A DNA stretch of 64,000 nt from Escherichia coli (GTDB taxonomy: Bacteria > Pseudomonadota > Gammaproteobacteria > Enterobacterales > Enterobacteriaceae): NCBI RefSeq assembly GCF_003334385.1, contig NZ_QOWN01000024.1, one strand, 5' to 3'. Position numbers and translations under genes: made by a program. Under the pieces are notes generated by a model. The model was not told where the DNA came from. It worked only from the letters and a program-made list of their open reading frames with translations, and did no database searches. Position 1 is the stretch's first letter; every line of letters begins with the position of its first letter. This document shows, piece by piece, positions 4,947-9,029 of this stretch.

Positions 4947-5879
4947 TTACTTATTCTGACGCTGTGATGACATGAGAGACGTCAGAAGCCGGTCTTTTTC
5001 CTGCCACAATGAGTTCAGCCATTGCTGAAAATGGCGCTTAAAGCTTTTGTCATTGATGTAGTCGCCATGTAACTCATCGGCAATAGGCTGTAAATCCACA
5101 TGTACGACAATCCGCGTCAGTTTACCGCTTAACATATCGAAGAACGGCTGACGGTTATTGTCCGGATAACACAGCGTAACATTAAGCAGTTTATCGAATT
5201 GTTTACCCAGTACATTTAGCGCCATCGCAATGCCTGCCGCCTTTGGTGGCAACAAGTTTTGAAAAGTGGAGTGGGTTTGCTGATGTTTTTCTTGCGTGAA
5301 ACGGGAGCCTTCAACGAAATTGACAATGGTGGTGGGATGCAGGCGAAACTTTTCACAAGAACGCCGAGTGGTTTCAACATCTTTACCACGTCGCTCCGGA
5401 TGACGTAATAAATAAGCGTGGGAATAACGCTTCATAAACGGCATATCCAGCGCCCAGCACGCCAGGCCAAGAAATGGCACCCAGGCCAGCTGTTGCTTGA
5501 GGAAATATTTATTCATCGGAATGTGCTTACGAAACAGCACGCACAGTACGACAATATCTGCCCAACTACGGTGGTTACAAATAAGCAGATACCAGTTCTT
5601 CTTACTTAACCCTTCCAGCCCGTGAACTTCCCATTGCAGGTGTGGGTTCAGATGCAGTAATACCGCCAGACCTTCACACCAGCAATACATCATAAAATCA
5701 CAAAAACGCGAAACCTTTCGCCAAATGACTGGCACAGGTAGCAATAGTTTTACAATCCCGGCAATGATGATCGGGACGGAACAAAAAATAGTGACCAAAA
5801 TGGTCAATACGATACTCAGCAAAAGGGTTATCGCAGCGAGTATTCTCGTCATAATGAATTTATTCAAAAGGTTAGCCAT
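4947..5879 (-). CDS. yihG: PlsC-family acyltransferase YihG
   Basis: 310 aa from Met MANLLNKF (ORF extends to 5903); HxxxxD-type acyltransferase motif (CNHRSWAD) and transmembrane N-terminus. Confidence 0.85.
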
Positions 5880-6109
5880 AGACAGTGCGCTAAAGAAGCG
5901 CAAGGCGCAGATTTTAGCAGAAAACGACCCAAATAACGGATGATCCTTAAGGAGAAAAATAATTCATATCTATCCACATTAGAAAAAATCCCATTATCTC
6001 AATTATCAGGGATGGCTTTACTTTTAACTGCATGAAAAACAAAGACAAGCATCATGCTGTAAAAAGCATGATAATAAATTAAAAGCGATGTAAATAATTT
6101 ATGCACAAA

Positions 6110-6118
6110 GTTATCCAC
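6110..6118 (+). promoter_or_regulatory. DnaA box (TTATCCACA) in polA promoter region; second near-match CTATCCACA at 5970-5978
   Basis: Exact 9-mer consensus upstream of the polA start; polA is reported to be DnaA-regulated. Confidence 0.5.
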
Positions 6119-6242
6119 ATGACGATTTGCGAGCGATCCAGAAGATCTACAAAAGATTTTCACGAAAAGCGGTGAAAAACTCATGTTTTTATCCTGTCTG
6201 TGGCATCCTTTACCCATAATCTGATAAACAGGCACGGACATT

Positions 6243-9029
6243 ATGGTTCAGATCCCCCAAAATCCACTTATCCTTGTAGATGGTTCATCTTATCTTTATC
6301 GCGCATATCACGCGTTTCCTCCGCTGACTAACAGCGCAGGCGAGCCGACCGGTGCGATGTATGGTGTCCTCAACATGCTGCGCAGTCTGATCATGCAATA
6401 TAAACCGACGCATGCAGCGGTGGTCTTTGACGCCAAGGGAAAAACCTTTCGTGATGAACTGTTTGAACATTACAAATCACATCGCCCGCCAATGCCGGAC
6501 GATCTGCGTGCACAAATCGAACCCTTGCACGCGATGGTTAAAGCGATGGGACTGCCGCTGCTGGCGGTTTCTGGCGTAGAAGCGGACGACGTTATCGGTA
6601 CTCTGGCGCGCGAAGCCGAAAAAGCCGGGCGTCCGGTGCTGATCAGCACTGGCGATAAAGATATGGCGCAGCTGGTGACGCCAAATATTACGCTTATCAA
6701 TACCATGACGAATACCATCCTCGGACCGGAAGAGGTGGTGAATAAGTACGGCGTGCCGCCAGAACTGATCATCGATTTCCTGGCGCTGATGGGTGACTCC
6801 TCTGATAACATTCCTGGCGTACCGGGCGTCGGTGAAAAAACCGCGCAGGCATTGCTGCAAGGTCTTGGCGGGCTGGATACGCTGTATGCCGAGCCAGAAA
6901 AAATTGCTGGGTTGAGCTTCCGTGGCGCGAAAACAATGGCAGCGAAGCTCGAGCAAAACAAAGAAGTTGCTTATCTCTCATACCAGCTGGCGACGATTAA
7001 AACCGACGTTGAACTGGAGCTGACCTGTGAACAACTGGAAGTGCAGCAACCGGCAGCGGAAGAGTTGTTGGGGCTGTTCAAAAAGTATGAGTTCAAACGC
7101 TGGACTGCTGATGTCGAAGCGGGCAAATGGTTACAGGCCAAAGGGGCAAAACCCGCCGCGAAGCCACAGGAAACCAGTGTTGCAGACGAAGCACCAGAAG
7201 TGACGGCAACGGTGATTTCTTATGACAACTACGTCACCATCCTTGATGAAGAAACACTGAAAGCGTGGATTGCGAAGCTGGAAAAAGCGCCGGTATTTGC
7301 ATTTGATACCGAAACCGACAGCCTTGATAACATCTCTGCTAACCTGGTCGGGCTTTCTTTTGCTATCGAGCCAGGCGTAGCGGCATATATTCCGGTTGCT
7401 CATGATTATCTTGATGCGCCCGATCAAATCTCTCGCGAGCGTGCACTCGAGTTGCTAAAACCGCTGCTGGAAGATGAAAAGGCGCTGAAGGTCGGGCAAA
7501 ACCTGAAATACGATCGCGGTATTCTGGCGAATTACGGCATTGAGCTGCGTGGGATTGCGTTTGATACCATGCTGGAGTCCTACATTCTCAATAGCGTTGC
7601 CGGGCGTCACGATATGGACAGCCTCGCGGAACGTTGGTTGAAGCACAAAACCATCACTTTTGAAGAGATTGCGGGTAAAGGCAAAAATCAACTGACCTTT
7701 AACCAGATTGCCCTCGAAGAGGCCGGACGTTACGCCGCCGAAGATGCGGATGTCACCTTGCAGTTGCATCTGAAAATGTGGCCAGATCTGCAAAAACACA
7801 AAGGGCCGTTGAACGTCTTCGAGAATATCGAAATGCCGCTGGTGCCGGTGCTTTCACGCATTGAACGTAACGGTGTGAAGATCGATCCGAAAGTGCTGCA
7901 CAATCATTCTGAAGAGCTTACCTTGCGTCTGGCTGAGCTGGAAAAGAAAGCGCATGAAATTGCAGGTGAGGAATTTAACCTTTCTTCCACCAAGCAGTTA
8001 CAAACCATTCTATTTGAAAAACAGGGCATTAAACCGCTGAAGAAAACGCCGGGTGGCGCGCCGTCAACGTCGGAAGAGGTACTGGAAGAACTGGCGCTGG
8101 ACTATCCGTTGCCAAAAGTGATTCTGGAGTATCGTGGTCTGGCGAAGCTGAAATCGACCTACACCGACAAGCTGCCGCTGATGATCAACCCGAAAACCGG
8201 GCGTGTGCATACCTCTTATCACCAGGCAGTAACTGCAACGGGACGTTTATCGTCAACCGATCCTAACCTGCAAAACATTCCGGTACGTAACGAAGAAGGT
8301 CGCCGTATCCGCCAGGCGTTTATTGCGCCAGAGGATTATGTGATTGTCTCAGCGGACTACTCGCAGATTGAACTGCGCATTATGGCGCATCTCTCGCGTG
8401 ACAAAGGCTTGCTGACCGCATTCGCGGAAGGAAAAGATATCCACCGGGCAACGGCGGCAGAAGTGTTTGGTTTGCCACTGGAAACCGTCACCAGCGAGCA
8501 ACGCCGTAGCGCGAAAGCGATCAACTTTGGTCTGATTTATGGCATGAGTGCTTTCGGTCTGGCGCGGCAATTGAACATTCCACGTAAAGAAGCGCAGAAG
8601 TACATGGACCTTTACTTCGAACGCTACCCTGGCGTGCCGGAGTATATGGAACGCACCCGTGCTCAGGCGAAAGAGCAGGGCTACGTTGAAACGCTGGACG
8701 GACGCCGTCTGTATCTGCCGGATATCAAATCCAGCAATGGTGCTCGTCGTGCAGCGGCTGAACGTGCAGCCATTAACGCGCCAATGCAGGGAACCGCCGC
8801 CGACATTATCAAACGGGCGATGATTGCCGTTGATGCGTGGTTACAGGCTGAGCAACCGCGTGTACGTATGATCATGCAGGTACACGATGAACTGGTATTT
8901 GAAGTTCATAGAGATGATGTCGATGCCGTTGCGAAGCAGATTCATCAACTGATGGAAAACTGTACCCGTCTGGATGTGCCGTTGCTGGTGGAAGTGGGGA
9001 GTGGCGAAAACTGGGATCAGGCGCACTAA
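6243..9029 (+). CDS. polA: DNA polymerase I
   Basis: 928 aa ORF; 5'-3' exonuclease, 3'-5' exonuclease and polymerase domains (e.g. [23 protein letters not shown]). Confidence 0.97.

Follow-up and report, generated by a model that had tools for sequence, protein, structure and literature searches.

The region upstream of polA raises the question of whether the DnaA boxes found there serve this gene and, if so, how the site to which they belong is built and how it could act on the polA promoter. The DNA analysed is a stretch of 64,000 nucleotides from Escherichia coli (hereafter the window), in which the annotated gene order is srkA-dsbA-yihF-yihG<>polA, followed by yihA. The intergenic region between yihG and polA spans 363 bp (5880-6242), and both motifs flagged by the first-pass annotation are located in it, upstream of polA as had been stated. 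The segment from 5677 to 6377 is collinear with positions 4046400-4047100 of MG1655 (NC_000913.3), so that a window coordinate equals the MG1655 coordinate minus 4040723. Six substitutions separate the two sequences (6007, 6016, 6021, 6049, 6190 and 6320), and none of them hits a DnaA box. A 901-bp query around the site matched 5426 of 5426 complete E. coli genomes, and the genes annotated in the matched segment were yihG and polA. The features of the region are as follows, with minus positions counted from the polA transcription start.

4947-5879, minus strand: yihG (acyltransferase), the divergent neighbour, annotated with the start codon used in K-12
5970-5978, plus strand: distal single DnaA box CTATCCACA, 8 of 9 positions of the consensus, about -245 to -237
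6025-6037, plus strand: central IHF-like motif TAACTGCATGAAA, 7 of the 9 specified positions of YAANNNNTTGATW, followed by an A/T-rich stretch
6099-6107, plus strand: upstream half of the double DnaA box, TTATGCACA, which fits TTWTNCACA, -116 to -108
6111-6119, plus strand: downstream half of the double DnaA box, a perfect TTATCCACA, -104 to -96
6127-6132, plus strand: TTGCGA, a partly conserved hexamer 7-9 bp past the box (consensus TnTTGCGAG in the Enterobacterales alignment)
6135-6138 and 6144-6147, no strand assigned: pair of GATC sites 9 bp apart, the second inside AGATCT
6199-6209, plus strand: TGTGGCATCCT, interpreted as an extended -10 in which TG is at 6201-6202 and the hexamer CATCCT at 6204-6209, ending 6-7 nt before the transcription start
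6215 (+/-1 nt), plus strand: polA transcription start from SMRT-Cappable-seq, 28 nt before the ATG
6243-9029, plus strand: polA coding sequence (DNA polymerase I, 928 aa), with its ATG at 6243 (4046966 in NC_000913.3)

The comparison across species was made on the best 80 of at least 594 confirmed polA loci (at least 600 stretches matched the pattern), taken from species-representative genomes. This sample ranges from Escherichia to Vibrio, Pasteurellaceae and Alteromonadales, and its members are related sequences, not independent samples. Since yihG was the upstream neighbour in only about 25 of these best 80 loci, the DnaA site belongs to polA, with which the module travels. The start codon of yihG depends on the annotation, being ATG 5879 in K-12 (310 aa) and TTG 5822 in a PGAP-annotated genome, and the true start is uncertain, given that in many genera the alignment of homologues begins only at residue 32-33. 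A 72-aa 'hypothetical protein' is also annotated in some RefSeq E. coli genomes, at 5725-5943 on the plus strand, antisense to the yihG start and promoter; this call is probably spurious.

The first-pass annotation had reported an exact TTATCCACA at 6110-6118. The motif is present, one base further on, at 6111-6119 on the plus strand, and this is its single exact occurrence in the 64-kb window. Taken alone, such a 9-mer is not significant, because 0.43 copies are expected per window and 33 of 100 shuffles contained at least one. The more degenerate TTWTNCACA was found 7 times in the window against 5.75 expected. In addition, matches to TTATCCACA with one mismatch numbered 27 in the window against 12.35 expected, a count reached by 0 of 100 shuffles in which codon usage was uncontrolled.

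What had been overlooked is a second box, TTATGCACA, located 3 bp upstream of the perfect one on the same strand with the spacer aag, and differing from TTATCCACA by one mismatch at a degenerate position. The two boxes at 6099-6107 and 6111-6119 thus have the arrangement that defines a double DnaA box, in which two boxes of the same orientation are 2 or 3 bp apart, and the 'double DnaA box' string tTTATGCACAaagTTATCCACAt corresponds to window positions 6098-6120. The window contains a single tandem pair of this quality, and a control of 349,626 bp, made up of flanking DNA from 80 related loci, likewise gave one. No extra box in register adjoined the E. coli pair at up to 2 mismatches; a third box, with a 2-bp spacer, was present only in some Alteromonadales.

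DnaA occupies this site in vivo. In the ChIP-seq experiment of Stringer, Fitzgerald & Wade (2024, PMC11317965), performed with SPA-tagged DnaA, 16 bound regions were reported, one of which is named 'polA'. Its peak is at MG1655 position 4046831, 123-fold over the control, and is assigned to the string tTTATGCACAaagTTATCCACAt (PMC11317965). The table footnote of that paper names NC_000913.2, and its coordinates fit NC_000913.3, because the oriC peaks (3925806 and 3925943) fall inside oriC at 3925744-3925975. The polA peak centre then converts to window position 6108, in the middle of 6099-6119; the resolution is too low to separate the box at 5970. The DnaA ChIP data that the first pass had named as a check therefore place DnaA on the proximal site. 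At the purH site, mutation of either box, or the addition of 1 bp to the spacer, abolishes DnaA binding, which showed that both halves and a spacing of 2-3 bp are required there, and single DnaA boxes are seldom occupied in vivo (PMC11317965). The conservation of CACA and of the spacer length (see below) suggests that both halves and their spacing would also be needed at polA, where DnaA probably binds the double box in vivo as a dimer.

The polA pair is literally one of the double boxes described in 2024, with a consensus downstream half and a degenerate upstream half (PMC11317965). DnaA has moreover been reported to stimulate polA transcription, notably in stationary phase (Quinones, Wandt, Kleinstauber & Messer 1997, Mol Microbiol 23:1193, as related in reviews). 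The proposal that the boxes fit a reported DnaA-dependent control of polA agrees with both the ChIP-seq peak at the site and the 1997 work as the reviews present it, and is incomplete in that half of the double box was missed. With a ChIP-seq study from 2024 and a regulation report from 1997, the DnaA interpretation is supported and the finding is already known: DnaA binding upstream of polA was first reported in 1997 and was mapped genome-wide in 2024, so that the original observation adds nothing new. PMC11317965 gives the pair only, and not the distal box, the spacing of 141-142 bp, the central motif, the GATC sites or the conservation across species.

The double box was found within 450 bp upstream of polA in 63 of the best 80 loci. 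In this set, the 3-bp spacer was kept in 63 of 63 double-box loci, the downstream box was a perfect TTATCCACA in 60 of 63, and the pair was on the polA strand in 62 of 63, the Ferrimonas pair being on the opposite strand. In these 62 loci, the distance from the end of the pair to the polA ATG varied from 89 to 230 bp and was mostly 100-135 bp. Across genera, the upstream box had an invariant CACA and variable positions 1-5, and one E. coli lineage carries TTATACACA in this box, a change at a degenerate position. The downstream box was invariant in 26 aligned Enterobacterales (-200 to ATG). Within E. coli, a 71-bp segment around the site was at least 99% identical in 5194 of 5426 complete genomes. 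The proximal and distal boxes form invariant islands amid divergent intergenic DNA, which indicates purifying selection on them. The view that the motifs are functionless chance matches in A/T-rich intergenic DNA agrees with the single exact 9-mer per 64 kb and with the 7 against 5.75 copies of TTWTNCACA, both within expectation. It is nevertheless practically ruled out by the in vivo occupancy, by a pair found in 63 of 80 loci against 1 match in 350 kb of control DNA, and by the invariant boxes and their fixed spacing.

To place the boxes relative to the polA promoter, published transcript data were used. In Supplementary Data 1 of the SMRT-Cappable-seq study by Yan et al. (2018, PMC6131387), a single forward transcript covering b3863|b3864 is given, at NC_000913.3 4046938-4050006. 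Its start at 4046938 was supported by 194 reads in M9 and 299 in rich medium, and polA was in one operon per condition (PMC6131387). The transcript also includes the small RNA gene spf (Spot 42, b3864), with which polA is co-transcribed, full-length reads extending to the spf terminator (window 6215 to about 9283). The transcription start supplement of Ettwiller 2016 had no polA entry. The alignment of 26 Enterobacterales (-200 to ATG) contained two invariant islands, the double box and T.TGGCAT.CT at 6199-6209, and the latter block was also found in Alteromonadales. A consensus promoter scan of 5800-6300 returned no sigma-70-like promoter, as would be expected because TGnCATnCT is a weak, non-consensus extended -10.

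The centre of the double box lies at about -106 from the only mapped start (6215, from growing cultures). The mapped promoter, which the first pass had also named as a check, may favour the proposed control, with the site about 106 bp upstream of the start and not beside the promoter. DnaA is not beside the -35 of the mapped promoter, because the boxes are at -104 to -96, -116 to -108 and -245 to -237. In comparison with the stimulation reported by Quinones and co-workers in 1997, as far as the reviews describe it, the gene and the regulator are the same, and the SMRT-Cappable-seq start puts the site near -106 rather than next to the -35. For the hexamer TTGCGA at 6127-6132, two roles are conceivable, that of a spacer element and that of a -35 in a weak second promoter, and a second promoter, nearer to the box and active in stationary phase, could be located there. 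No start fitting TTGCGA was found in the SMRT-Cappable-seq data from growing cultures, and the promoter scan was also negative.

How far the T.TGGCAT.CT block lies from the double box, counted from the end of the latter, was tabulated for 54 loci among the best 80. This distance was 60-61 bp in 5 loci, 68-71 bp in 11, 77 bp in 2 and 79-81 bp in 34, and two loci were out of class, with 126 and 185 bp respectively. Parashewanella, outside this tabulation, has a distance of 36 bp and no distal box. The distance from the box to the -10 is therefore stepped by about 10 bp (60, 70, 80). The 70 and 80 classes both occur within the Enterobacteriaceae, Yersiniaceae, Erwiniaceae and Hafniaceae, and the presence of both classes in the same families points to repeated shifts by roughly a helical turn. 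In most other taxa the TGGCAT block goes with the module, and a different -10 was found in two Aliivibrio and two Photobacterium loci that bear the module. In the nine Pasteurellaceae loci listed, the DnaA module is missing in all its parts and a consensus TATAAT stands some 35 bp ahead of the polA ATG, as if an activator-dependent promoter had been replaced by a constitutive one. The phasing, together with a weak -10 that is tied to the module, suggests that the site works on the polA promoter from one particular helix face. These patterns also argue that the promoter may have been kept weak so as to depend on the DnaA site.

The second flagged box, CTATCCACA, is present exactly at 5970-5978, as had been reported. 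Relative to the high-affinity consensus TTATNCACA / TTWTNCACA, it is mismatched at position 1 and falls outside TTWTNCACA. The sequence TATCCACA is invariant in 10 Enterobacteriaceae whose flanks have diverged. A distal box (up to 1 mismatch, same orientation) and a perfect proximal box were both found in 64 of 81 loci, and the distance between them was 141-142 bp in 54 of these 64, with or without yihG. In detail, the spacing was 141 bp in 15 loci, 142 bp in 39, 143 bp in 2, 145-146 bp in 5 (Alteromonadales), and 129, 132 and 148 bp in one locus each. In enterics the sequence of the distal box is nTATCCACA, and in Vibrionaceae it is TT[TG]TCCACA. Conservation was far stronger for the length of the inter-box DNA than for its sequence or for the distance to the ATG, which ranged from 89 to 239 bp. 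These data suggest that the box at 5970 is a conserved accessory site kept at a fixed distance from the double box. No comparable distal box was found at purH, where a bipartite module was looked for.

The box at 5970 might instead belong to yihG, with DnaA acting about 70 bp upstream of the promoter of this acyltransferase gene. The start codon of yihG in K-12 is 91 bp away from the box, the minus strand has a conserved TGcTAAAAT (5911-5919) that resembles an extended -10 of yihG and would put the box near -70, and YihG has been linked to DnaA-ATP levels in the literature. This explanation is very unlikely, for the spacing of 141-142 bp is kept in about 40 loci, including Vibrionaceae, that do not have yihG as a neighbour, and single boxes are rarely occupied in vivo (PMC11317965). 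A yihG transcription start was not found in the published start data. On the minus strand, the block GATTTTAnCAGAAAA (5910-5924) is conserved in ten Enterobacteriaceae and is a candidate extended -10 of yihG, with a predicted start near 5904. The preferred reading, in which the distal box is an accessory site of the polA double box, is followed below.

Between the two DnaA sites, ungapped columns of the 39 loci with a 142-bp spacing revealed a sole conserved island, at +56 to +68 from the distal box. Its consensus is T-A(97%)-A-NNNN-T-T-G-A-T-W, followed by an A/T-rich stretch. The consensus binding sequence of IHF is WATCAANNNNTTR, of which YAANNNNTTGATW is the reverse complement. At +55/56 from the distal box, 54 of 64 loci matched at least 7 of the 9 specified positions, a score reached at 2.1% of all other inter-box positions, and 27 of 64 loci matched at least 8 of 9, for which the background was 0.45%. 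In Alteromonadales, the best IHF-like motif is on the other strand, at +69/70. The position and composition of the island suggest that it may be a bend site between the DnaA boxes. In the open-access literature, none of the papers joined IHF and DnaA boxes with 'upstream of polA'; subscription papers, including that of 1997, may note the second box.

Other possible functions of the inter-box DNA were considered. A hidden RNA or small gene was rejected, as the region had no Rfam match at E <= 1 and no column conservation except at the central motif. The 80-aa open reading frame at 5999-6241 on the minus strand was likewise rejected as a gene, its sequence being non-conserved. A hairpin with a 9-bp stem, CATCATGCT-N6-AGCATGATa, is located between the DnaA sites at 6050-6073. 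It is present in E. coli and E. albertii and absent from Citrobacter and more distant genera, and with this limited range it was not retained as part of the module.

The region immediately past the proximal box is rich in GATC, the Dam site. Two GATC about one helical turn apart were found at 6135 and 6144. In the 35 bp past the proximal box, the GATC density was 9-fold over that of the control flanks, and 28 of 47 Enterobacterales had two GATC there at a distance of 9-11 bp, an arrangement that was found 11 times in the 207,528 bp of control. Enterobacteriaceae have the pair at +16/+25 and several other families have it at +5/+14, the bases between being variable. In the ten loci of Vibrionaceae and Plesiomonas that were listed, GATC was fixed at +15 and +26, and often at +33/38, after the distal box. 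Overall, at least 2 GATC per module were found in 50 of 64 loci, against 0.9 expected. The module had no GATC in Erwinia, Dickeya, Citrobacter werkmanii and Alteromonadales. The hexamer AGATCT (6143-6148) was considered as a DnaA-ATP box and rejected, other genera having CGATCG, GGATCA and the like; since the bases flanking GATC in AGATCT vary between genera, only GATC is the conserved unit.

SeqA-bound GATC clusters adjoin DnaA boxes at oriC and at the dnaA promoter. The polA sites resemble these in having GATC about one helical turn apart beside DnaA boxes, retained while their neighbours change, and differ in that there are only two or three GATC rather than a dense cluster. It is conceivable, if rather doubtful, that the boxes tie polA to the replication cycle, with SeqA on hemimethylated GATC transiently blocking DnaA; such a control would be compatible with the activator model. 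The 9-fold density, the pairs in 28 of 47 Enterobacterales, the fixed +15/+26 sites in Vibrionaceae and Plesiomonas, the 50 of 64 loci with at least two sites, and the retention of GATC amid varying bases all speak for it. Several module-bearing genera have no GATC in the module, however, and AGATCT, a reported DnaA-ATP hexamer, is not the conserved unit.

The architecture of the module can be compared with that of datA. In MG1655, datA has a double box at 4392732-52, an IHF site matching 9 of 9 positions at 4392809-21 and a single box at 4392906. In the box names reportedly used by Kasho and Katayama in 2013, these parts correspond to datA boxes 7 and 2, the IHF site and box 3, and datA promotes DnaA-ATP hydrolysis. 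Both loci have a double box and, oriented the same way, a single box, with a motif of IHF type in between, and both span 140-160 bp. Measured from the putative bend, the arms are comparable, with 67/79 and 95 bp at datA against 57 and 72/84 bp at polA. The parts are ordered single-IHF-double at polA and double-IHF-single at datA, the IHF match is 7/9 at the E. coli polA and 9/9 at datA, and only the polA module is phased to a promoter. Another relative is the nrdAB promoter, which has a double DnaA box, gTTATCCACAaagTTATGCACTt, with an aag spacer, belongs to a replication-related gene and is bound in vivo (PMC11317965); the order of its consensus and degenerate boxes is the reverse of that at polA. 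DnaA is described as activating nrdA (PMC11317965 and a review) and also as repressing the nrd operon.

These likenesses raise the possibility that the module is mainly a DnaA-handling locus of the datA/DARS type, acting by titration or by a change in nucleotide state, with any effect on polA being secondary. The polA peak is among the strongest ChIP peaks outside the origin (123-fold, compared with 213 for datA and 124 for purH; PMC11317965), its parts resemble those of datA (double box, IHF or IHF-like site and single box), the inter-box DNA has a fixed length of 141-142 bp and a freely varying sequence, and the locus lies in an oriC-proximal zone rich in DnaA boxes. Overproduction of YihG suppresses hyperinitiation in an hda mutant (Babu et al. 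2017, as described in PMC7277886), an effect that might stem from a cloned fragment carrying the module, to which titration of DnaA could then contribute. On the other hand, a fixed orientation to polA and a quantised distance to the -10 would be needless for a pure titration or hydrolysis element, the module goes with a weak -10, and the order of its parts is the mirror of that in datA. A strain without the four known extrinsic DnaA regulators is nearly normal according to one published abstract, a statement that neither requires nor excludes a further element. On balance this explanation is unlikely, and the control of polA remains the preferred function of the module.

Taken together, these features suggest that the interval is very probably a DnaA operator of polA, with a double-box core, a weak promoter, stimulation from one face of the helix, and an accessory distal box and bend. 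The motifs, their conservation and their geometry are direct observations, and the DnaA occupancy and the transcription start were taken from published data. We infer from them activation from -106, the role of the distal box and bending by IHF. In such a mechanism, DnaA bound to the double box would stimulate RNA polymerase at the weak extended -10 (TGgCATCCT) from about -106, in a manner dependent on the helix face, and the synthesis of Pol I would thereby follow how much DnaA, the replication initiator, is present or in which state it is. The central IHF-like motif would bend the DNA so that DnaA on the distal box could reinforce the proximal complex, and the distal box and the bend motif would give rise to a DnaA complex of larger size. 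Through SeqA, the GATC pairs may contribute a control coupled to replication. IHF peaks as cells enter stationary phase, and this would agree with reports that the stimulation of polA by DnaA depends on growth phase. Some observations count against parts of this mechanism. A centre at -106 is far for a simple activator, which weighs against the activator model; the weak 7/9 match of the E. coli IHF motif weighs against the bend; and the deviant -10 in two Aliivibrio and two Photobacterium loci, with the distances of 36, 126 and 185 bp, weighs against a phased promoter.

A broader proposal, which we put forward tentatively and as somewhat short of an even chance, is that the region is an ancient composite element in which a distal box, an IHF-type bend, a double box and GATC pairs are phased to a weak polA promoter, common to Enterobacterales and Vibrionaceae and modified in some Alteromonadales. 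If this were true, IHF would fold the DNA and three DnaA protomers would form one complex. Such an element would explain why the stimulation occurs mainly in stationary phase and would offer a tractable model of activation by DnaA. Like datA, such a folded complex might in addition have an effect on DnaA itself.

The larger, length-conserved module around the known site has apparently not been described. What is new is the comparative architecture, namely the distal box, the fixed spacing, the central motif, the GATC pairs and the phasing to a weak promoter. The mechanism of DnaA-dependent activation has been called 'poorly understood' (PMC11317965), and the fixed geometry, the bend-type motif, the Dam sites and the helical phasing of the polA module may be useful for its study, as a modest lead. 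The module can also be regarded as a candidate for a further DnaA-handling locus in the vicinity of oriC.
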